The notes beneath the pieces are model-generated. The model made no database searches. It saw nothing but the letters and a program-made list of their open reading frames with translations, and was not told the DNA's origin. Position numbers and translations under genes: made by a program. A DNA stretch of 64,000 nucleotides from a virus. This document shows, in pieces, positions 10,766 through 43,315 of the stretch. The stretch is from positions 11,016-75,015 of the IMG/VR virus record IMGVR_UViG_3300047157_000243. One strand, given 5' to 3'. Position 1 is the stretch's first letter. Each line of letters opens with the position of its first letter.

Positions 10766-11904
10766 TTTTTCTTTTTCTTGGCTTTCGATTTCTTTGCTTT
10801 AGCCCACAAATCGGCATCTGCTTTTCTAGCGCCTCCAGAGCCAGTAATAAAACTATTTACGCGACCCATAGCCCACTGATTTTGCGCAACCCCAGGCCTG
10901 TGACCAGTTCTCCACGCAGCCATACCTCTGTTATACACTTGCTTTAATATAGTAAAAGATATGCCAGAAGATTTGGCTTTACTCTTTAATCCTTTATCAT
11001 TATTTTTAGATTCTTTTATAACATCTTGACTGCTTGGCATTATAGATATTCCATATTTTTTATTAAGAATCTTTTCTAATGCAATAGGTATAGCCATTGA
11101 AACTGAGCCTAAAGCCATTACACCAATTATTTTACCTAAGTCTTTTGATTGTTCTTTTAAAAACTTTATTTCCTCTTTCGTAACATCTTTTTTCGCAAGT
11201 ATTTTTTTGCATATTTTAAATGCCTGAACAGTTTCCTTTTTCTCTCTTGAAGCAGCCTCTTTAAACTTATTAAAAGAATCAACCAGCTTATTTTTTTTAT
11301 CTTTTATTAATTTGTTAAATCCTTCGCCATACATTTTTTTATAAGCCAAAGTCGCGTCACTTTTTTTTGTATTTTCACCCTTATCAGCTTTCCATTGCTT
11401 AGTGTATGCAGAAGGGTCAGATGACTTTTTGTGAGCAAACTTATCTATCTCTTTTTTCATTTGAGACCTTTTGTTCTTAGACTTAGATGTAAGATATTTG
11501 CCAGCTACTTTTCTTCCTTTTTTTGTTCTAGAGTCTTTACCTCTATTTTCTAAAAATAGACTTAATGTTTCTGATATAATTTTTTGTAAATTGATTTCAA
11601 TATTAGATAAGTCCGTTTTATAAATTTTTACTTCCAAATCTCCACTACCTTTTATTAGTCTATGAAACTTTTCTGACTCTATAAATATCGGTCTTTCAGG
11701 AGTTAAATTTTGCGGAATTTCGTTATCTATTTGTATTTGCCAATCACTTTCGTGCAAAGGGAATATAATTCTATCTTCCTTATCTCTATGCCAAACCAAC
11801 TCGTTTTCATTTAATGAATTAGAAAAATTTCTAACAACAAACTTCCCATCTTTATTTTCATCAAACGGTAAGTTGTTTTTTTTACTTTTATTACTTTCTT
11901 CCAT
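10762..11904 (-). CDS. Multi-module basic protein, probably virion-internal
   Basis: N-term ELVWHRDKEDR cupin-like module; C-term LKQVYNRGMAAWRTGHRPG...WAMGRVNSF module recalled from large phages/viruses. Confidence 0.55.
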   Translation of the reverse strand: MEESNKSKKNNLPFDENKDGKFVVRNFSNSLNENELVWHRDKEDRIIFPLHESDWQIQIDNEIPQNLTPERPIFIESEKFHRLIKGSGDLEVKIYKTDLSNIEINLQKIISETLSLFLENRGKDSRTKKGRKVAGKYLTSKSKNKRSQMKKEIDKFAHKKSSDPSAYTKQWKADKGENTKKSDATLAYKKMYGEGFNKLIKDKKNKLVDSFNKFKEAASREKKETVQAFKICKKILAKKDVTKEEIKFLKEQSKDLGKIIGVMALGSVSMAIPIALEKILNKKYGISIMPSSQDVIKESKNNDKGLKSKAKSSGISFTILKQVYNRGMAAWRTGHRPGVAQNQWAMGRVNSFITGSGGARKADADLWAKAKKSKAKKKKK

Positions 11905-21460: not shown

Positions 21461-21537
21461 GGACGGGTAGCTCAGCTGGATAGAGCATCTGCCTTCTAAG
21501 CAGACGGTCGAAGGTTCGAATCCTTCTCCGTTCACCA
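21461..21537 (+). tRNA. tRNA-Arg(TCT)
   Basis: Canonical cloverleaf; anticodon arm TCTGC-CT TCT AA-GCAGA; GGTTCGAATCC; encoded CCA. Confidence 0.95.
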
Positions 21538-21544
21538 TTTAATA

Positions 21545-21618
21545 GGGCCTCTAGCTCAGCTGGTTAGAGCAACTGACTCATAATCAGTAGGTCACAGGTT
21601 CGAACCCTGTGGGGCCCA
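21545..21618 (+). tRNA. tRNA with CAT anticodon (probably Ile2, else elongator Met)
   Basis: GGGCCTC/GGGGCCC acceptor; ACTGA-CT CAT AA-TCAGT; GGTTCGAACCC; no encoded CCA. Confidence 0.9.
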
Positions 21619-21635
21619 CTCAAATATTTTATCAT

Positions 21636-24130: not shown

Positions 24131-24628
24131 ATGCAGCAAGTATTAGTATTAAACAGCACATACCAGCCCATAAATGTAACAAGCTTATCTAGAGGATTTA
24201 AGTTAGTTTTTAAAGGAAAGGCTGAAATACTAGAACACATCTCAAAAGAACCTATTGTAACAGAAAGAAAAAGCTTTAAAAGACCTACAGTTATTAGACT
24301 TTTAAAATACGTATCCGTTCCTTTTAGAAAAGTTTATTTATGCAGGCAGAATATATTTAGAAGAGATGATTTTCAATGCCTATATTGTAATAGCGAAAAA
24401 GATTTAACCATAGACCACGTAATGCCCAGCTCTAGAGGAGGTAATAACACTTGGCAGAATTTGGCAACATGTTGTAAATCTTGTAACGAAACAAAGGATA
24501 ACAAAACCCCAGAAGAAGCAAATATGAATATGAGACACAAGCCTTTTAGGCCTTCCTATTTATATTATGTTCAGAAATTTAAAAGAATACATAAATCCTG
24601 GAATGTTTATGTTGGAATTAATAGTTAA
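24131..24628 (+). CDS. HNH endonuclease
   Basis: VLVLN..YQP; RDDFQCLYC...TIDHVMP.SRGG...W.NL.TCCKSCN..K. Confidence 0.9.
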   Translation: MQQVLVLNSTYQPINVTSLSRGFKLVFKGKAEILEHISKEPIVTERKSFKRPTVIRLLKYVSVPFRKVYLCRQNIFRRDDFQCLYCNSEKDLTIDHVMPSSRGGNNTWQNLATCCKSCNETKDNKTPEEANMNMRHKPFRPSYLYYVQKFKRIHKSWNVYVGINS

Positions 24629-25727: not shown

Positions 25728-25749
25728 AATTTTTAATTTTAATTAAATG

Positions 25750-25823
25750 TGGAGGATATCGGAGTCGAACCGATGACCTCCTGCGTGCAAGGCAGGCGCT
25801 CTAGCCAGCTGAGCTAATCCCCC
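25750..25823 (-). tRNA. tRNA-Ala(TGC)
   Basis: GGGGGAT/ATCCTCC acceptor with G3:U70; CCTGC-CT TGC AC-GCAGG; GGTTCGACTCC. Confidence 0.95.
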
Positions 25824-25860: not shown

Positions 25861-26886
25861 CTACATTATACCAGCTAATTTTTTTAATCTTTTTTTATGG
25901 CTTTCAGATATTATGTTTTTTGATTTTTCAACATCAACAACTAAAGGGTTAGAGTCCAAAGATTTGCCAAACATTTCAGACTCTTTTTTTCTTCTTTTAA
26001 TGTGGCCTGGATAACTTACGTTTGTGGATAATATCCTTTCTTTAGCTTCTTCGTAATTTCCTTTTTTGACTAGTTGTATGAAATCGCTACCTCTAAATCC
26101 ACCTCTTCCCATGTTAAATGTCATGGAAACCATTGCATCGTACATGTTTTGGTCTACATAAAAAGGTATGTTTTTACCTTTCCATTCTTCAAAAACACTT
26201 TTTACCGCTTTTTCAGCACTATTCAAATCTTGAAGCAAAAGTTCTTTAGCTTTTTCTAGTTTTATTGTATCTCCAACTTTAAATTGTGAATTACTTTTAC
26301 TTTCAGCATGCCCCCATCCAATGGTTATCATATCGTCTCCCAAATCATAAGCAACCAAGACTGGTTCGCCTTTAAATTTTGCAGAACCCTCTTCTATTTT
26401 CATGAAGTCAATCAAAGAATCTGATATAGAGCTGGGTATATGACTTAAAATCACTTCTTCATCTACACTTTCCTCCTCATCTTCTTTAGAGTCCAAGTCC
26501 ATAACATCAGGAGAATCTTCTTCTGCGTTATTTGCTGTTAAATCTAACTTAATAATTTCAATTTCATCATCTAGCCCTGAATCACTATTAGATGCATAAT
26601 CATACAATTGAGAATAACTCATTATACCAGCCAAAGATATAAATGCGTATTTTAAAATTTTTAATTTTATTTTTTTGGGTAGATTTTTAATTTTTTTAAA
26701 CAGTATATTTAAATATTGTTTTGCTTGCTCTATAGTTTTTACCCCCAAAGTAGAGTCTTTAACTTTTTTTTCTGTTAAATCCCACTCGTAAGTTGGAGAA
26801 GGTTCTTCAGAGTTTTCTTTGTATACATTTTTTATAGCCTCAGATATAAGGTTTTCTATCTCTTTTATATTAGATTCTTTTAGCAT
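25861..26886 (-). CDS. GH24 (T4-type) lysozyme with a long N-terminal extension and terminal tags
   Basis: IEEG...AYDLGDDMITIGWGH, Q..YDAMVS.TFNMG, GH.KRR..E; start MLKES at 26886; C-term ISESHKKRLKKLAGIM. Confidence 0.85.
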   Translation of the reverse strand: MLKESNIKEIENLISEAIKNVYKENSEEPSPTYEWDLTEKKVKDSTLGVKTIEQAKQYLNILFKKIKNLPKKIKLKILKYAFISLAGIMSYSQLYDYASNSDSGLDDEIEIIKLDLTANNAEEDSPDVMDLDSKEDEEESVDEEVILSHIPSSISDSLIDFMKIEEGSAKFKGEPVLVAYDLGDDMITIGWGHAESKSNSQFKVGDTIKLEKAKELLLQDLNSAEKAVKSVFEEWKGKNIPFYVDQNMYDAMVSMTFNMGRGGFRGSDFIQLVKKGNYEEAKERILSTNVSYPGHIKRRKKESEMFGKSLDSNPLVVDVEKSKNIISESHKKRLKKLAGIM

Positions 26887-26910
26887 GTAAATAAATAGTT
26901 TTAAAAAATA

Positions 26911-26974
26911 AGACCACTTATAGTAGCGAACTTTAAGTGGTCTATGCAACCGAAGTTACAACGGTCCTAACCGT
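26911..26974 (-). ncRNA. Three-hairpin RNA element / terminator-like
   Basis: Minus strand: ACGG-TTAGGA-CCGT, TGTAAC-TTCG-GTTGCA (cUUCGg), AGACCACTTA...TAAGTGGTCT plus T-run. Confidence 0.55.
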
Positions 26975-27895: not shown

Positions 27896-28195
27896 ATGGC
27901 TTCTGATAATTATAGATATAATAAGTATAGCATGCCTGAACAAGATTGGGAAAAGAAACTTATTACATATTCTAACTTTATTTCAGATAGACTTAAGAGT
28001 TATTTGGCAAAAAAAAATATGACAACAGAAGTATTGTCTAAAAAGATTGGTATTTCAAACGATACAGCCAAATTGATGTTACACGATATTTATGTTTATA
28101 ATTATAGTATAGAAGAAATTTCTAAACTAGACCTTTTATTTGAAGGGCATTATGATGTTTATGAAAAAAAAGCTTTTGATAGAAACAGTAAATAA
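27896..28195 (+). CDS. Putative XRE-like HTH protein
   Basis: YLAKKNMTTEVLSKKIGIS...NYSIEEISKL. Confidence 0.5.
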   Translation: MASDNYRYNKYSMPEQDWEKKLITYSNFISDRLKSYLAKKNMTTEVLSKKIGISNDTAKLMLHDIYVYNYSIEEISKLDLLFEGHYDVYEKKAFDRNSK

Positions 28196-28872: not shown

Positions 28873-29007
28873 TTATTTTCCCTGGCCTCTGTATTTTTTT
28901 TTGTAATACTTTGCACCTTTAGAGTTAGAATGTTTGCTTTTAGCATGAATACCTGGTCTTTTCTTTTTCATTTCACCAGAATTGTTTTTACTAGAAGATT
29001 TTGCCAT
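28873..29007 (-). CDS. 44-aa highly basic peptide ending KKYRGQGK
   Basis: MAKSSSKNNSGEMKKKRPGIHAKSKHSNSKGAKYYKKKYRGQGK; late motif 29034-29040; below the ORF-track cutoff. Confidence 0.7.
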   Translation of the reverse strand: MAKSSSKNNSGEMKKKRPGIHAKSKHSNSKGAKYYKKKYRGQGK

Positions 29008-29092
29008 TTTAAATATGATTTTAATTGTTAATAATAAATATGAAAAAATTTCATTTATTGACTTTGGTGAATACTTTTCTTATCTTGCATAA

Positions 29093-29407
29093 ATGACTAA
29101 AAGTCTTTTGATAGAAAAGTGCGGACACCTGTCTCTTAATTTAACTTCTGTTCAAGTGATGGGAGAGTTTAGGCCATTAAGAACATGTTGGACTCCCGAG
29201 CTCTATCAAGACTCAGAATATTATACTAATAATTATGAGGCAGAAGAGCCTGAAAACATTTTTAAAAAGAAGTTAATAATTGAAAAATATATACCTTATA
29301 ACTTTAAAGATGTCGAATCAGAGCTTTCTAATATTTTAGCTACAGAACTTGGAGCATCTATTGATGCAGAGATATTAGGTAGTTTAATTGATTTGGAAAA
29401 TGAATGA
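29093..29407 (+). CDS. Small protein carrying a gp23-type major capsid protein fragment
   Basis: RPLRTCWTPELYQD and DVESELSNILATELGASIDAEIL match the gp23 R.LKA..S.ELAQD / DA.AELS.ILATEI..EINRE segment; TATCTTGC box at 29081-29088. Confidence 0.7.
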   Translation: MTKSLLIEKCGHLSLNLTSVQVMGEFRPLRTCWTPELYQDSEYYTNNYEAEEPENIFKKKLIIEKYIPYNFKDVESELSNILATELGASIDAEILGSLIDLENE

Positions 29408-29672
29408 TTCTATAAAGTCACATTTAGAAGAGTGGACTAATTTAGTTTATCCTAAAAAAGAAAACGTATACAAAAGAAAACTTCTTGTTGAAAAGTGTGT
29501 TGAATATACTGTTCGACATTCAGAAACTGATTTCACTGTTTTAGGTTATGACTTAATCACATCTGGTTCAACTATAATCGGAATTAGCTCTAGAGCAGTC
29601 GGCGGTCCAATTAATTATCCTACACACATAACAAGCTCAGAAGAATTTAGAGAAATTTTTGGTGATGTGTAA
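29400..29672 (+). CDS. Small protein carrying a tail-sheath N-terminal fragment
   Basis: SETDFT...TIIGI...GGPINYPTHITSSEEFREIFG matches the sheath E.D.T...G..G...GP...P..ITS..E...FG motif. Confidence 0.7.
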   Translation: MNDSIKSHLEEWTNLVYPKKENVYKRKLLVEKCVEYTVRHSETDFTVLGYDLITSGSTIIGISSRAVGGPINYPTHITSSEEFREIFGDV

Positions 29673-29722: not shown

Positions 29723-30070
29723 ATGAGCTTAACACAAAAAGAGAAAGACGAAATTCACGAAAGAGTTGAAAGTATGACACCTAAACAAAGAAGTCGTAGA
29801 ATGGATAGGTTAGTAAATGAATCTATAATTAAGAGCGTAATTGTACATGCTGTTTTATTGTTATATGTACTTACATCTGTGTATATAAAACAAAACTATG
29901 AAATTAATAGCCTTATATACATAGTTTTAATTGGGGTGGGTATTTTTTGGACTTACGGTTGTATGTTGACGTTTCAAGCATATCTGTTTTTTAAGAGCGC
30001 AAAAAATTTATCTAATTCATTTGGTTCAAGTATACAAGATGGTATTGATTTTTTAGATTTAAATGAATAA
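29723..30070 (+). CDS. Two-TM membrane protein
   Basis: Two hydrophobic helices in 115 aa. Confidence 0.55.
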   Translation: MSLTQKEKDEIHERVESMTPKQRSRRMDRLVNESIIKSVIVHAVLLLYVLTSVYIKQNYEINSLIYIVLIGVGIFWTYGCMLTFQAYLFFKSAKNLSNSFGSSIQDGIDFLDLNE

Positions 30071-30090: not shown

Positions 30091-30121
30091 AAAAAAGCGA
30101 CTTATATAAAGTCGCTTTTTT
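30091..30121. terminator. Bidirectional intrinsic terminator
   Basis: AAAAAAGCGACTT-ATATA-AAGTCGCTTTTTT between convergent genes. Confidence 0.8.
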
Positions 30122-30145: not shown

Positions 30146-30919
30146 CTATTTTTTTTCTATTTCTGAAATTATTTTATTAGCTTCTTTTTTTAATTTTTTG
30201 ATTTCTTCAGATTTTCTAGCTTCTTCTCTAAAGATTTTTCTAATATCATTTTCATTAATAGATTCATTCTTACCACTTATACCAGCAAGTTTCCTGTCTT
30301 TATATGCTGCTGCCAATGTAGGCTTTCCTTTCAGGTCTACAATTCTAATATCTTGTTTACTAACATTTAATCCATCCCATTTATTTTTAGGAGTTAATAC
30401 TTTATCAATAAAAGATTGAACTCTTGATTTTAAACCAGCTTTTTCTTCATCAGTCAATTCTCTAACAACTTTACCAGCGGTTAAGTTGTCTACACCTTTC
30501 CATTCTATCATTTCACCTTTGTCTATTTCAGCTTCAACAGCTTTCTTGGCAAGAGATATAGCTTCTTCAGCTTTCTTCGGGTCTTTTTTAAACATGTCCA
30601 TTACACCTTCTTCACACCTTCGCCTTCGTTTTCTTCAACACCTTCGTTTTCTTCACACCTTCGTTTTCTTCAACACCTTCGTTTTCTTCAACGCCTTCGT
30701 TTTCTTCAACGCCTTCATTTTCTTCAACGCCTTCGTTTTCTTCAACGCCTTCGTTTTCTTCAACGCCTTCTTCGCAAGTATCATTCTCTTCCATTGAGTA
30801 GTTCTCGTTTAAACGCTTTTTGAATTTTCGCTTTCTCAGCCTCTAAAGATTGAATTGTTAAAAAATCTATCAGCTTCTTCTTTTATTATTTGACTAAGCT
30901 CTTGTTTTGAAATTTTCAT
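30146..30919 (-). pseudogene. Prohead core/scaffold-like protein with EENEGV repeats, split by about four 1-nt indels
   Basis: Starts MKISKQELSQIIKEEA at 30919; correcting the T6 and A5 runs and two GTG(T) losses joins 30612..30794 and 30146..30601. Confidence 0.6.
30623..30770 (-). repeat. 18-bp tandem repeat encoding EENEGV
   Basis: About 8 units of (plus strand) CCTTCGTTTTCTTCAAC(G/A). Confidence 0.9.
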
Positions 30920-32424: not shown

Positions 32425-32931
32425 ATGAGTATTGTAAAAGAAGGTGTTGATATTAATTTAGAGGTATGCGAACCAGACAGGTTGTACAGAGCTTATGTTG
32501 GCGAAGAGTCATGGTTAGATATGTTAAATTCTTCAATAAACAAATGCAATGGAGTATGTCAAGGCTGTGGATACAACCCGCCAGATAAAAGTTTTTTAGA
32601 GATACATATTATATCAGGAAGCGTTAATGATTTAGAGACTTATTTATATACATTGTTATGTAAAACATGTCACACCTTAAAGCATATTGATATAGCTTCT
32701 GAAAAGGGATGGATAAAACTTTGTAACTCTATTTTTGACCAAAAGAAATTGATATCTATATGTCGTTCAGGAAAATCTAGGTTACTAGAAAAGGTAAATT
32801 CAGGAGAAATAATGCTATTAAAAACAGATGCAACTCAATATTCAAAGTCCTTGTCTGAAGATGTTTTTAATAAGCGGAAGAAAATAAAGGCTGTATTCGG
32901 AAAAAATTTTCCTAAAGAAAGATTAAAATAA
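32425..32931 (+). CDS. HNH-fold Zn protein (IcmJ/DotN-like)
   Basis: CQGCG...LEIH...LLCKTCH..KH. Confidence 0.5.
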   Translation: MSIVKEGVDINLEVCEPDRLYRAYVGEESWLDMLNSSINKCNGVCQGCGYNPPDKSFLEIHIISGSVNDLETYLYTLLCKTCHTLKHIDIASEKGWIKLCNSIFDQKKLISICRSGKSRLLEKVNSGEIMLLKTDATQYSKSLSEDVFNKRKKIKAVFGKNFPKERLK

Positions 32932-39820: not shown

Positions 39821-42800
39821 TTATATACTTTTTATTATAGTTTTAATGTCCCAACTTTCAGCGCCTGTAATTGTAGCTGTTAAATCTGCAGTGTTTCCTG
39901 TGGAAATAACTACACTCATAGTTACTGCAGTAGTTGAACCATTTATGTCATTAGTACTAACATCTGAATAGTCCACACTAGAACCACTCCAAATAGATGA
40001 AATATTACCAGCTCTAGCACCACCTGAAGATGTTCCCACTATTGTATAATCATAAAAACCTCCTGTGTATGCACTTGTTGGTATAGAATATAAAACATTA
40101 GCACCAGTAGTTACTGTCGAATACGAACTTGTATTTAATGATGGAGATATATTATCACCCATCAGTATAGTGTTGTCAGAATAAACCTCTAATACAGGCA
40201 GGCCTGATATGTCATTTACAGCGAATAATTGACCATCTAAATTGTCTGTTACAGTAAAAAGTTCTCCACTTGAGCCTTGAACACTAAATATAGGACTTGT
40301 ATCTCCTGAGCCATATATGGTAAGTGCTGGGAGTGTTGTCCCTGAAATTGTTCCTCCCGTTAGCGGCAAGAAATCTCCGCCACCACCAGCAGAACCTGTA
40401 ACTACATTTCCACCAGAATCTATACCTAAATTATTAACGGATGTTCCTGTAGCTAAACTGTTTATGTTTAAATAAGGAACATAAACTGTGTCATCAGTTG
40501 TTCCTGTAATATTTTGCCCACCTAAAACGGCACTTCTTACACCCGTAACCAAAGAGTCGGTAGAGTGTATAAAAGAAGTTAGGCCAGAAGCTATAGAGTT
40601 TCTACCAGCGGCATGAGTATAATTTCCAGAAGCTATTGTTTGGCTGTTTTGCGAGTGACTAAATGAACCAACAGATGTCGTTTGTCCCCCTTCAGCGTGA
40701 GAATATCCTGAAGCGAATGTTGTAAAACCTTCTGCATGAGAAGCAAACCCAGAAGCTGTAGTGCTTTCACCTTCTGCATGCGAACCTAGACCACTTGCCA
40801 CAGTAAATCTACCTTCAGCATGAGACCCCTGTCCAGAAGCTAAAGTGCTTAGACCCTCAGAGTGTGAAGAGTATGTTATTGCAGATGTTGGCTGTGACAA
40901 CGAGCCCTTACCAGTAAAATAAATACCCCCTTCAGCATGTGATGCTTCTCCGCTTGCTAAATTGTTATTACCTTCAGCGTGAGAATAATCTCCGCTTGCT
41001 GTTGTTTGAGAACCTTCAGCGTGAGAATAGTCTCCACTAGCTACAGTATTATTGTTTTGAGCATGAGCCCCTCTACCAGAGGCTGTAGAAAGTTCACCTT
41101 CAGCATGAGAACCTGTACCTAAAGAAATTGAGCCAATACCCTCAGCGTGAGAAGTGTCGCCAGATGCTATCGTATTAGTACCTTCAGCATGTGATAGGCC
41201 ACCACTCGCAGTAGTATTCCCTCCTTCAGCATGAGATGAAACGCCTGATGCAGTATTTGGGATAGTACCTTTTCCATCAAATCCACCTTCAACATGAGAA
41301 GCGTGTCCACTAGCTATATTCGAAATTCCTTCAGCATGAGAATAGTCTCCACTTGCTGTTGTTTGAAAGCCTTCCGAGTGAGAAACGACACCAAGAGACG
41401 TTGTCTGAAAACCTTCAGCATGAGAAGTGTCACCAGAAGCTACTGTAAGCTCTCCTTCAGCGTGACTGGCACTCCCGTAAGTAATTGAGTCATTCCCTTC
41501 TGCGTGAGAGTTGGTTCCAAAAGTCTTAGTTCCAGTACCTTCAGCATGAGAATTGTTTGCAACGGCTGTGGTAAAAAATCCTTCAGCGTGAGCAGTTGCA
41601 CCACTAGCTCTAGTGTTTGCCCCTTCTGCATGTGAAGCGAGTCCTGCAGCAATGTTAATATACCCCTTCCCTGGAAAACCTCCTTCAGCATGAGAAGCCT
41701 CTCCTACAGCTTGATTTCCAAATCCTGAAGCAAAAGAATAGTTACCTGTCGCATCTACACCTGAAGTATTTATGGCTTTTATAGAAAAAGAACCTGTTGA
41801 GCCTGTTGTGAAAACAGTCGTACCAGTTCCTCCGCCACCACCAGCAGAACCTGTAACTACATTTCCACCAGAATCTATACCTAAGTTATTAACAGATGTT
41901 CCTGTAGCTAAGCTGTTTATGTTTAAATAAGGAACATAAACTGTGTCATCAGTTGTTCCTGTAATGTTTTGCCCTCCTAAAATAGCACTTCTTTGACCAG
42001 TAACTAAAGAGTTTGTTGAATGTACAAAAGAAGTGGAACCAGATGCAATAGAGTCAGAACCTCCCGCATGCGAAAATGAACCGCTTGATATTGTTTCAAA
42101 ACCTTCTGCATGTGAAGCTAGTCCACTAGCTGTTGAGCTATAACCTTCTGCATGAGCGGCATCATTACTAGCCGTTGTATCAAAACCTTCCGTATGAGAC
42201 GCTGTACCTGTAGATGTTGTATTAAAGCCTTCTGAATGAGAAGATGTACCGCTTGCTATTGTATTTAAACCTTCCGCATGAGAGTCGGCTCCACTTGCCA
42301 CAGTACCAAATCCTTCAGAGTGAGAATCTTCACCACTAGACGTTGTGTTCCATCCTTCAGCATGAGCATAATCTCCACTTGCAACCGTAAACAATCCTTG
42401 CGCATGAGAATCTTCACCAGATGCTGTTGTAAAATATCCTTCAGCATGAGCTTCCGCTCCAATGGCAGAAGTTCCCCATCCTTCAGCATGAGATTCACCA
42501 CCCCCAGCAACTGTAACACGACCTTCTGCGTGTGCAGAGCTTCCACTTGCTAATGTCTGCCTACCTTCAGCATGAGAAGCTGGTCCAGAGGATATAGTCG
42601 TTGCACCTTCTGCGTGTGCATAATTTCCTGAAGCCGAAGTACTACCACCTTCAGCGTGTGAATAAGAACCACTAGCAACTGTGAAAAACCCTTCTGAGTG
42701 GTCACCAACATTAAGTGCTTTAGTGGATTGTCCCTCAGCGTGAGAATAGTTCCCAGCAGCCAAAGTGCCTACGCCTTCAGCGTGAGACGAAAAAGTTGTA

Positions 42801-43315
42801 GCAGATGTTGGGTCTGAAAATTTACCATTAAAACCACCTTCAGCGTGAGATGCTGTTCCGCTAGCTAAATTATCGTAACCTGAAGCGAATGCATAATCAC
42901 CTGTTGCATCTATTGCAGTATCATTTAAGGCTTTTATTGAAAATAAGCCAGTTGAACCAGATGTGAAAACTGAAGTAGAGCCAGTTAAATAATCTAATAA
43001 AGGAGTATCTCCAATAAAGTATGTGTCTCCTGAAATAGTTGACCCACTTATGTTTTCAGCAGTAATACCTGTAAGATTTATACTTCCATTTAAATTAACT
43101 TCATAAGTTGATATTCCTAAAGTGGAGCCAGAAACAACATTTATGTTTGAACCTCCATCTGTGATTGAATGCCCACTTAAAATGCCATGTATGGCATCTC
43201 CAAAAACATCTTCGATAAGCTCAAAGTTGTCATTTATTTTAACTCTACCCTCGTTGGGCGTATCCGAAGGGAGTATATCTTTTATTGTTGTTGTACCTGT
43301 AAAAAAATGTGACAC
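39821..43315 (-). CDS. Tail fibre with YadA-head-like SHAEG repeats
   Basis: About 50 14-aa repeats T.ASG..SHAEG in two tandem modules; late motif 43339-43345. Confidence 0.85.
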   Translation of the reverse strand: MSHFFTGTTTIKDILPSDTPNEGRVKINDNFELIEDVFGDAIHGILSGHSITDGGSNINVVSGSTLGISTYEVNLNGSINLTGITAENISGSTISGDTYFIGDTPLLDYLTGSTSVFTSGSTGLFSIKALNDTAIDATGDYAFASGYDNLASGTASHAEGGFNGKFSDPTSATTFSSHAEGVGTLAAGNYSHAEGQSTKALNVGDHSEGFFTVASGSYSHAEGGSTSASGNYAHAEGATTISSGPASHAEGRQTLASGSSAHAEGRVTVAGGGESHAEGWGTSAIGAEAHAEGYFTTASGEDSHAQGLFTVASGDYAHAEGWNTTSSGEDSHSEGFGTVASGADSHAEGLNTIASGTSSHSEGFNTTSTGTASHTEGFDTTASNDAAHAEGYSSTASGLASHAEGFETISSGSFSHAGGSDSIASGSTSFVHSTNSLVTGQRSAILGGQNITGTTDDTVYVPYLNINSLATGTSVNNLGIDSGGNVVTGSAGGGGGTGTTVFTTGSTGSFSIKAINTSGVDATGNYSFASGFGNQAVGEASHAEGGFPGKGYINIAAGLASHAEGANTRASGATAHAEGFFTTAVANNSHAEGTGTKTFGTNSHAEGNDSITYGSASHAEGELTVASGDTSHAEGFQTTSLGVVSHSEGFQTTASGDYSHAEGISNIASGHASHVEGGFDGKGTIPNTASGVSSHAEGGNTTASGGLSHAEGTNTIASGDTSHAEGIGSISLGTGSHAEGELSTASGRGAHAQNNNTVASGDYSHAEGSQTTASGDYSHAEGNNNLASGEASHAEGGIYFTGKGSLSQPTSAITYSSHSEGLSTLASGQGSHAEGRFTVASGLGSHAEGESTTASGFASHAEGFTTFASGYSHAEGGQTTSVGSFSHSQNSQTIASGNYTHAAGRNSIASGLTSFIHSTDSLVTGVRSAVLGGQNITGTTDDTVYVPYLNINSLATGTSVNNLGIDSGGNVVTGSAGGGGDFLPLTGGTISGTTLPALTIYGSGDTSPIFSVQGSSGELFTVTDNLDGQLFAVNDISGLPVLEVYSDNTILMGDNISPSLNTSSYSTVTTGANVLYSIPTSAYTGGFYDYTIVGTSSGGARAGNISSIWSGSSVDYSDVSTNDINGSTTAVTMSVVISTGNTADLTATITGAESWDIKTIIKSI

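Follow-up and report, generated by a model that had tools for sequence, protein, structure and literature searches.

The closest described counterparts of the locus that we report here are the internal proteins of phage T4. The T4 proteins IPI, IPII, IPIII and Alt, through their capsid-targeting sequence (CTS), and the core proteins cut by gp21 carry a short peptide ending in (L/I)-x-Glu on small payloads that are unrelated to one another. T4-type prohead proteases cut after Glu within a short X-x-E motif with few other determinants (PMC9026906; PMC5694885), and several cleavage sites per substrate are common (PMC9026906; PMC5694885; PMC3012670). In the 10-residue CTS of IPIII, residues 8 and 10 determine processing and residues 4 and 7 determine targeting, and the N-terminal 'LIE-9' of gp21 fits the cleavage logo (PMC9026906; PMC5694885). 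Here we analyse a window of 64,000 nucleotides (positions 11,016 to 75,015 of the IMG/VR virus record IMGVR_UViG_3300047157_000243; all positions below are those of the window unless a related record is named), in which two overlapping open reading frames (ORFs), ORF1 and ORF2, join copies of a short tag of this kind to excerpts of a gp23-type major capsid protein and of the tail sheath protein. The record is a 75-kb, AT-rich (~30% GC) fragment of an uncultured viral contig, estimated to be ~25% complete, and the host of the cassette is an uncultured large marine phage. Judged from its sequence, the locus is a functional, modular cassette of tagged-excerpt mini-proteins. Its units are named A, B and C after the three mini-ORFs found in close relatives.

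The cassette shares more with the T4 internal proteins than the tag and the small, mutually unrelated payloads. An N-terminal tag copy lies within the first 10 residues (MTKSLLIE, to be compared with MKTYQEFIAE, with which IPII and IPIII begin in the T4 genome), and T4 gp21 begins MNEPQLLIET, with the same LLIE core. Both systems have a diverse repertoire of payloads with a fast turnover. In T4 the ipI-III genes are likewise found outside the head cluster, beside the lysozyme gene (e), a tRNA cluster and homing endonuclease (segB) genes. Unlike those of T4, the tags of the cassette are mostly internal, repeated in a polyprotein-like manner and longer (Y-K-R-x-L-L-I-E-K), and the payloads are excerpts of virion proteins rather than enzymes or inhibitors.

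Considered by payload, the nearest known proteins are gp23 and its vertex paralogue gp24 (PF07068, HK97 fold) and the tail sheath protein (N-terminal part of domain III of T4 gp18, PF22671). Unit A corresponds to gp23 residues 248-310 and unit B to residues 92-125, with conserved residues kept. However, the two units cover only ~60 and 35 of the 376 profile positions, A precedes B so that they are not colinear with the parent, and a tag interrupts the sequence; they cannot form a complete fold. The payload of unit C corresponds to sheath residues 4-59, from the sheath start codon to the conserved F-G motif, whereas it stops after ~58 residues, and the canonical S-P-G-V-Y start has degenerated in the sublineage of the window.

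Three further systems offer partial parallels. The Gol peptide of T4 gp23, known from Lit/EF-Tu exclusion, is a short capsid segment that is active alone, and unit B of the relatives covers gp23 92-125; yet Gol activates its sensor rather than blocking it, and unit B is deleted in the window. DSAD1 demonstrates that a phage protein can occupy a sensor of virion proteins, although that report does not describe it as copied from the tube protein. Finally, alt.-1 and alt.-2 of T4 are small ORFs derived from a partial copy of the gene of a capsid-associated protein (the 5' part of alt). Unlike the cassette, they arose by one local duplication next to the parent gene; they have no repeated tag, combine no different parents into a mosaic and belong to no conserved family. 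A literature search found no published description of tagged-excerpt mini-genes such as these.

Capsid and sheath excerpts

The initial annotation of this DNA described an intact, overlapping ORF pair carrying a gp23 segment and a sheath N-terminus, and in this it proved correct. The stop codon of ORF1 (104 residues) and the ATG of ORF2 (90 residues) overlap by 8 nucleotides, ATGAATGA, which is the usual arrangement of genes predicted to be translationally coupled. An alternative start of ORF2, a TTG at 29388, would give 94 residues.

The gp23 assignment comes from the relatives of ORF1 more than from ORF1 itself. On its own, the ORF1 of the window is borderline against PF07068 (24.1 bits with a cut-off of 24.4, E 2.9e-5), and tblastn with it gave no match. 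Its orthologues score 41.8 (E 1.2e-10), 32.4 and 30.1 bits against the same profile, and tblastn with the orthologue of the related record L005 matches 60 annotated major capsid genes. A profile of the 25-member family aligned with T4 gp23 at 90.6% (E 1.3e-6), placing ORF1 residues 11-98 on gp23 248-310. In a comparison of six gp23-type capsid proteins, the segments used as excerpts rank second and third in conservation among windows of 30 residues, and the second excerpt is a long helix in a low-confidence structure prediction. The predicted ORF1 product is an excerpt and not a complete HK97-fold capsid protein, as it spans profile positions 132-196 only and is interrupted by a tag.

For ORF2, plain HMMER searches with the ORF and its family against Pfam and the PDB returned no significant sheath match, and PF22671 alone was not significant either. 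Profile-profile comparison succeeded where these failed: hhalign aligned a profile of nine payloads with the N-termini of seven real sheaths (98.1%, P 1.3e-13) over sheath residues 4-59, while 40 column shuffles reached at most 1.5%. In tblastn all matches of a family member (24/24) fell on tail sheath genes, beginning a few residues from their start codons. A search for longer relatives of ORF2 and of unit B found none. The putative ORF2 protein is not a full sheath subunit, since the ORF stops after 58 payload residues and lacks the C-terminal domain. Given that the complete folds which define them are absent, the mini-proteins are not capsid or sheath proteins; rather, the units are conserved blocks copied long ago from a gp23-type capsid protein or from the first ~55 residues of the sheath. 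AlphaFold2 models of ORF1 and ORF2 were too poor for a fold search (pLDDT, the predicted local distance difference test, 38 and 49), and the lack of a confident autonomous fold is consistent with peptides that dock on a partner.

The repeated tag

A motif shared by the two ORFs, in three copies, had been noted initially and is indeed present, twice in ORF1 (residues 5-9 and 58-66) and once in ORF2 (residues 24-33). The three copies are in frame within 400 bp and follow the consensus (E-N)-x-(Y/F)-K-(R/K)-x-L-L-(I/V)-E-K. The internal copy of ORF1 lies within 28 inserted residues that interrupt the gp23 excerpt between T4 residues 284 and 285. As the copies vary at synonymous sites, conservation acts on the peptide and not on the DNA word. 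Numbered as a cleavage site, 46 tag instances have Glu at P1, L at P3 (44/46) and L at P4 (41/46), positions that are partly set by the search pattern; upstream they show R/K at P6 (43/46), K at P7 (36/46) and Y at P8 (30/46), and P2 and P1' are variable. The tag L and E are also near-invariant in the family alignment (A5), which is independent of the search pattern.

A scan for further ORFs with the LLIEK motif had been proposed with the initial annotation. No genuine in-frame copy of the core motif exists elsewhere in the 75-kb record, for which ~2 core matches are expected by chance in six frames. Across four related records (~224 kb in total) the strict DNA word of the tag is confined to the cassette, and the tag peptide occurs in the cassette and at the C-terminus of an HTH protein in L003 and L006; no record includes the head module. 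These HTH_26 orthologues (L003 4745-5053; L006 4278-4577) close with the full tag YEKKLLIEK, as …YEKKLLIEKMQTT and …YEKKILIEKLNI. The HTH_26 protein of the window (27896-28195) ends …YEKKAFDRNSK and has lost the tag. Since the HTH_26 protein carries it in two relatives, the tag is not confined to virion-protein excerpts.

The cassette in related phages

Two syntenic records with 80-87% DNA identity, L003 and L005, contain three mini-ORFs. Their unit A is the equivalent of ORF1, unit B consists of a leader, a tag, the equivalent of gp23 92-125 and a poly-Arg end, and unit C of a leader, a tag and the sheath N-terminus. In the window the payload of unit B has been removed by a clean in-frame deletion with its ends in two copies of TTGAAAAG, which encode the L-E-K of two tags; because of this deletion between tag copies, ORF2 comprises the head of B and the body of C. 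L006 has a different deletion in which the 5' half of unit B is gone, so that unit B was lost twice independently. The window thus contains the cassette in reduced form, lacking unit B and, on the upstream HTH protein, the tag.

Units may also be joined in a single chain instead of lying in separate, coupled ORFs. Units B and C form one chain of 182-189 residues in P0004 and P0007, and unit A is fused to further units in P0026 and P0015. In L003 (6540-6610) and L005 (5900-5960) the end of B and the start of C lie in an (AGA/GAA)n tract, which is poly-Arg in one reading frame and poly-Glu in the other; slippage by a single base would be enough to produce a B-C fusion like that of P0004 and P0007. 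Through recombination between tag copies, units are added, removed and re-joined in frame, ORF2 of the window being one such case. Throughout, the cassette ORFs are intact in six genomes and all insertions and deletions are in frame.

The unit-A family comprises 34 clusters at 90% identity, with proteins of 98-141 residues that are 42-92% identical and share the layout tag-payload-tag-payload; they originate from marine sources including Tara, on contigs of up to 390 kb, among them those that encode P0017 (390 kb), P0025 (106 kb) and P0013 (93 kb). More distant forms have the excerpts without this tag. In L048 (2959-3339) a protein of 126 residues holds the A payload (gp23 134-194, uninterrupted) followed by the B payload (gp23 7-48), in permuted order. 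The LLIEK tag is missing from this fusion, which has FKYFRGF and IIDRFRYFRGII as its end motifs and falls in an Atlas cluster of 64 'Gp23 domain' proteins of ~123 residues. In the two megaphages LR745206 and LR756504 (L018 2998-3471; L021; L023; L024; L025), complete genomes of ~635 kb, a full capsid gene is accompanied by separate, scattered ORFs of 61-157 residues, which each combine a single gp23 block with a shared tail motif behind it (SINKIFK, KIENIFKIE, KIDRIFKS). The identity of the excerpts in megaphages W01 and W02 to the capsid protein that the phage itself encodes is only 24-42%. A 256-nucleotide contig from one seawater run of uncertain type matches positions 29379-29495 and continues into undeleted unit-B sequence, which indicates that a relative was present and says nothing on transcription of the locus. 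Altogether, the cassette seems widespread in large marine phages and megaphages.

Selection and turnover of the units

At larger distances the ratio of nonsynonymous to synonymous substitutions (omega) is 0.18-0.76 for unit A, 0.28-0.68 for unit B and 0.41-0.69 for unit C, compared with 0.1-0.2 for neighbouring genes. Among the closest relatives, omega of unit C is at least 1 on very few changes, with unusually low synonymous divergence (dS). The core DNA of this unit is near-identical in four genomes with flanks that are 13-20% different (dS 0-0.24), and the invariant core was found in cassette-bearing contigs only. Searches of the core gave no Rfam match, no tRNA and no excess of folding (z -0.22). 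Because an RNA family, a tRNA and a folding signal are all absent, we read the low dS as recent exchange of the unit.

The initial annotation had argued that two different epitopes on a shared scaffold are not random debris. This view gains from the wider comparison: family members are conserved, no fusion, split or deletion has put a unit out of frame, the cassette persists in six related genomes under relaxed purifying selection (omega ~0.2-0.7), omega lies below 1 when distances are larger, and the order A-B-C followed by a gene for a transmembrane (TM) protein is kept in L003 and L005 as well as in the more distant L045 and L047. The cassette is best described as a set of predicted coding genes, fast-evolving but constrained, with turnover of units, and not as debris.

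Expression signals and neighbouring genes

The features of the cassette are collected in Table 1. A host-type promoter box had been proposed upstream of ORF1. The box itself, TATCTTGC, is present at 29081-29088, where it forms the -10 of a sigma-70-like candidate, TTGACT-17-TATCTT; as a promoter it is a consensus match only and its -35 is partly conserved. The -10 block and the context of the ATG are kept in six genomes, the -35 in four of them and not in L045 and L047. No promoter-like site of this kind recurs in the window, and neither the upstream block TTTTCYTATMTTG nor the T4 late-promoter word TATAAATA is enriched there; they give no information on timing. There is no Shine-Dalgarno sequence before ORF1 and the promoter candidate ends close to the ATG, so that the ORF1 mRNA may be leaderless.

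Table 1. Positions of the cassette features in the window.
Feature	Position	Strand	Remarks
HTH_26 DNA-binding protein	27896-28195	+	two genes upstream of the cassette
Sigma-70-like promoter candidate, TTGACT-17-TATCTT	29058-29086	+	consensus match; ends 6 nt before the ORF1 ATG
ORF1 (unit A)	29093-29407	+	104 aa, intact; order tag, gp23 excerpt 1, tag, gp23 excerpt 2; omega 0.18-0.76
N-terminal tag copy, T-K-S-L-L-I-E-K ('LIE-8')	29096-29119	+	L6 and E8 nearly invariant in 25 family members
gp23 excerpt 1	29123-29212	+	ORF1 residues 11-40; T4 gp23 248-277; Pfam Gp23 positions 132-164
Internal tag copy, E-P-E-N-I-F-K-K-K-L-I-I-E-K-Y	29246-29290	+	L61, E64 and K65 invariant
gp23 excerpt 2	29309-29386	+	ORF1 residues 73-98; T4 gp23 285-310; Pfam Gp23 positions 165-196
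ORF2	29400-29672	+	90 aa from the ATG at 29400, intact; unit-B leader and tag fused in frame to unit-C payload
Third tag copy, E-N-V-Y-K-R-K-L-L-V-E-K	29460-29495	+	deletion junction in repeated TTGAAAAG, 29488-29495
Sheath N-terminus excerpt	29496-29669	+	ORF2 residues 33-90; sheath residues ~4-59 (T4 gp18 5-55)
Two-TM protein	29723-30070	+	115 aa; next gene after ORF2; probably the last gene of the operon
Terminator-like hairpin	30091-30121	.	13 pairs, T and A runs on the flanks; operon end

A small TM protein is encoded 3' of unit C in all genomes compared (6/6). Its genes lie at 4201-4584 in L045 and at 3945-4289 in L047, and the distant versions cannot be aligned with that of the window (29723-30070), position and topology being kept. 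On the minus strand, divergent from the promoter region of the cassette, an ORF of 44 residues (28873-29007) encodes an extremely basic, strongly conserved protein with an omega of ~0.1. Also on the minus strand, at 30146-30794, is a gene with a variable GVEENE tandem repeat that is a single ORF of 256-295 residues in relatives and is broken into ORFs of 151 and 60 residues in the window.

In the wider surroundings there are four tRNA genes (Arg, Met, Ala, Phe) at 21461-21619, 25749-25823 and 58912-58986, two HNH endonuclease genes (24131-24628 and 32425-32931) and an endolysin-like gene (25861-26949), neighbours that recall those of T4 ipI-III. Further away, at 39821-43315 on the minus strand, an ORF of 1164 residues coincides with a local GC peak (~42% vs 30%) and has 12 repeated matches to phrog_25468; it adjoins ORFs matching phrog_8510, 'virion structural protein'.

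Possible functions of the cassette

How might such mini-proteins be used? Our tentative preference goes to the reading that the tag is a T4-type signal for both prohead-protease cutting at L-x-E and capsid targeting, and that the payloads are molecular mimics. The tag would be read by one phage factor, most likely a T4-type prohead protease together with the scaffolding core, and would serve it both for capsid targeting and for cutting at L-x-E. Once loaded into the prohead, the mini-proteins could be cut there to free peptides of 40-60 residues. More speculatively, the freed or injected peptides might mimic contact surfaces of capsid and sheath, directed towards host sensors or towards the parent proteins. 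ORF1 begins MTKSLLIE-K and other family members show the same start or VFKRNLLIE-K, a short N-terminal propeptide type ending in (L/I)-x-Glu, so that membership of the CTS class is plausible from sequence. If each unit were released or read separately, a free interchange of fused and split units would be expected, which is what led us to a reading of targeting and cutting. Moreover, the motif behaves as a tag and not as the 'scaffold' of the initial annotation, and its likeness to a prohead-protease site suggests capsid loading and processing rather than, or before, a role as cytoplasmic decoy. An origin of leader and tag from the N-terminal propeptide of gp23 was considered as well and is unsupported, as hhalign aligned a 44-column capsid block only, and neither leader nor tag.

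Several observations weigh against this reading. L-x-E is a short pattern, and the Y-K-R-K extension exceeds the known needs of the protease. The CTSs of T4 are N-terminal, while most cassette tags have an internal position, and it is hard to see what a sheath excerpt would do in a head. In other lineages the same excerpts come with end motifs that lack a terminal Glu (SINKIFK, YFRG), and unit B was lost on two independent occasions. No gene for a prohead protease (PF03420), a scaffold, a real capsid protein or a sheath was found in seven related records, which are fragments of 11-27% completeness, and scans of viral, metagenome and genome contigs reached none that combines a cassette with head genes.

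The proposal made initially was that of a cytoplasmic decoy or antagonist of immunity, whereby early mini-proteins would occupy sensors of capsid and sheath and the tag would serve as a docking or stability element unrelated to the head. The structure on which it was built stands, namely excerpts of capsid and sheath N-terminus on a shared, repeated motif; the proposed function we think unlikely. Few blocks of gp23-type capsid proteins are as conserved as the excerpts, and broad sensors would be expected to read such blocks. Major capsid proteins are sensed by Avs7, Avs8 and Avs10, and a possible further target that has been named is the sheath (PMC13581612); DSAD1 provides a precedent by competing with the tail tube for the DSR2 sensor (PMC11087589). 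Relaxed and fast evolution (omega 0.2-0.7) and the turnover of units recall genes of host interaction, and a sigma-70-like site lies upstream. Nonetheless, a faithful mimic would activate, and not block, sensors that are triggered by binding (Lit, CapRel, Avs). A sensor of the Lit/Gol type would be triggered in this manner, and the Gol-equivalent unit is deleted in the window. The W01 and W02 excerpts are poor copies of an epitope, given how little they resemble their own capsid protein. The promoter is a consensus match with a -35 that L045 and L047 have not kept, and the proposal leaves the protease-site-like pattern of the tag unexplained.

Alternatively, the mini-proteins might modulate assembly, a possibility that we rate as less probable again. 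The excerpts could block the surfaces through which the phage's own capsid and sheath proteins polymerise, so that no off-pathway polyheads or polysheaths arise, or poison the assembly of co-infecting relatives. Capsid and sheath protein are indeed the main pair of self-polymerising proteins in the virion, the excerpts come from conserved segments rich in contacts, and the sheath excerpt is the region of the N-terminal arm. Neither protein of the window has a predicted autonomous fold, and the fusion of A and B payloads in L048 suggests joint action. However, the low identity of the excerpts in W01 and W02 to the phage's capsid protein counts against this reading, some genomes dispense with units, and the tag finds no explanation here either.

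Prohead targeting and a decoy role could also be combined, although we regard this as an improbable scenario. The cassette would then deliver mimics of the most conserved capsid and sheath surfaces: loaded into the prohead through the CTS-like tag, released by the protease and injected with the DNA, non-activating look-alikes would pre-occupy the sensors ahead of synthesis of the real proteins. If true, this would add a new, modular class of anti-defence, in which the phage turns its own 'antigens' to use and units are swapped by recombination at the tags.

That the units are slowly decaying recombination debris in a hyperplastic region, left by old partial duplications of head and tail genes and without present function, is in our view highly improbable. 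A precedent exists in T4, where alt.-1 and alt.-2 carry the annotation of an old partial duplication of alt, and HNH endonuclease genes are found nearby. The independent deletions of unit B in the window and L006, relaxed selection with an omega of unit C near or above 1 among close relatives, and the low-confidence fold predictions would fit decay. Yet 34 clusters hold their length and layout at 42-92% identity, in-frame indels have left the ORFs of six genomes intact, omega falls below 1 once distances are larger, and the tag residues are invariant despite synonymous changes. The same three excerpts also recur in distant phages with other tags.

Least probable is a role at the level of DNA, in which the ORFs are incidental and the units either donate sequence when the real capsid and sheath genes undergo gene conversion or repair, or act as an RNA element: the near-identical unit-C core within diverged flanks and the use of tags as recombination points could be cited in its favour, but tags are conserved as amino acids and not as nucleotides, the core has no Rfam match or excess folding (z -0.22) and is restricted to cassette-bearing contigs, and the W01 and W02 excerpts, at 24-42% identity, are too diverged for homologous exchange.

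Implications

Capsid and tail proteins are now known as main triggers of bacterial immunity, and their self-assembly needs tight control. A conserved, modular family made up solely of their most conserved excerpts, behind tags that resemble a head-protease and targeting signal, points to an undescribed layer of phage biology, be it the delivery of self-mimics, the control of assembly or interference with rivals. The units, fused, split and deleted in frame, are a natural experiment in protein modularity, and the family amounts to a set of short, testable reagents in the form of peptides of 40-60 residues and a tag of 12 residues. In public databases its members carry automatic Gp23-fragment labels only. 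An explanation of the cassette would therefore annotate a recurrent class of small 'hypothetical' genes.

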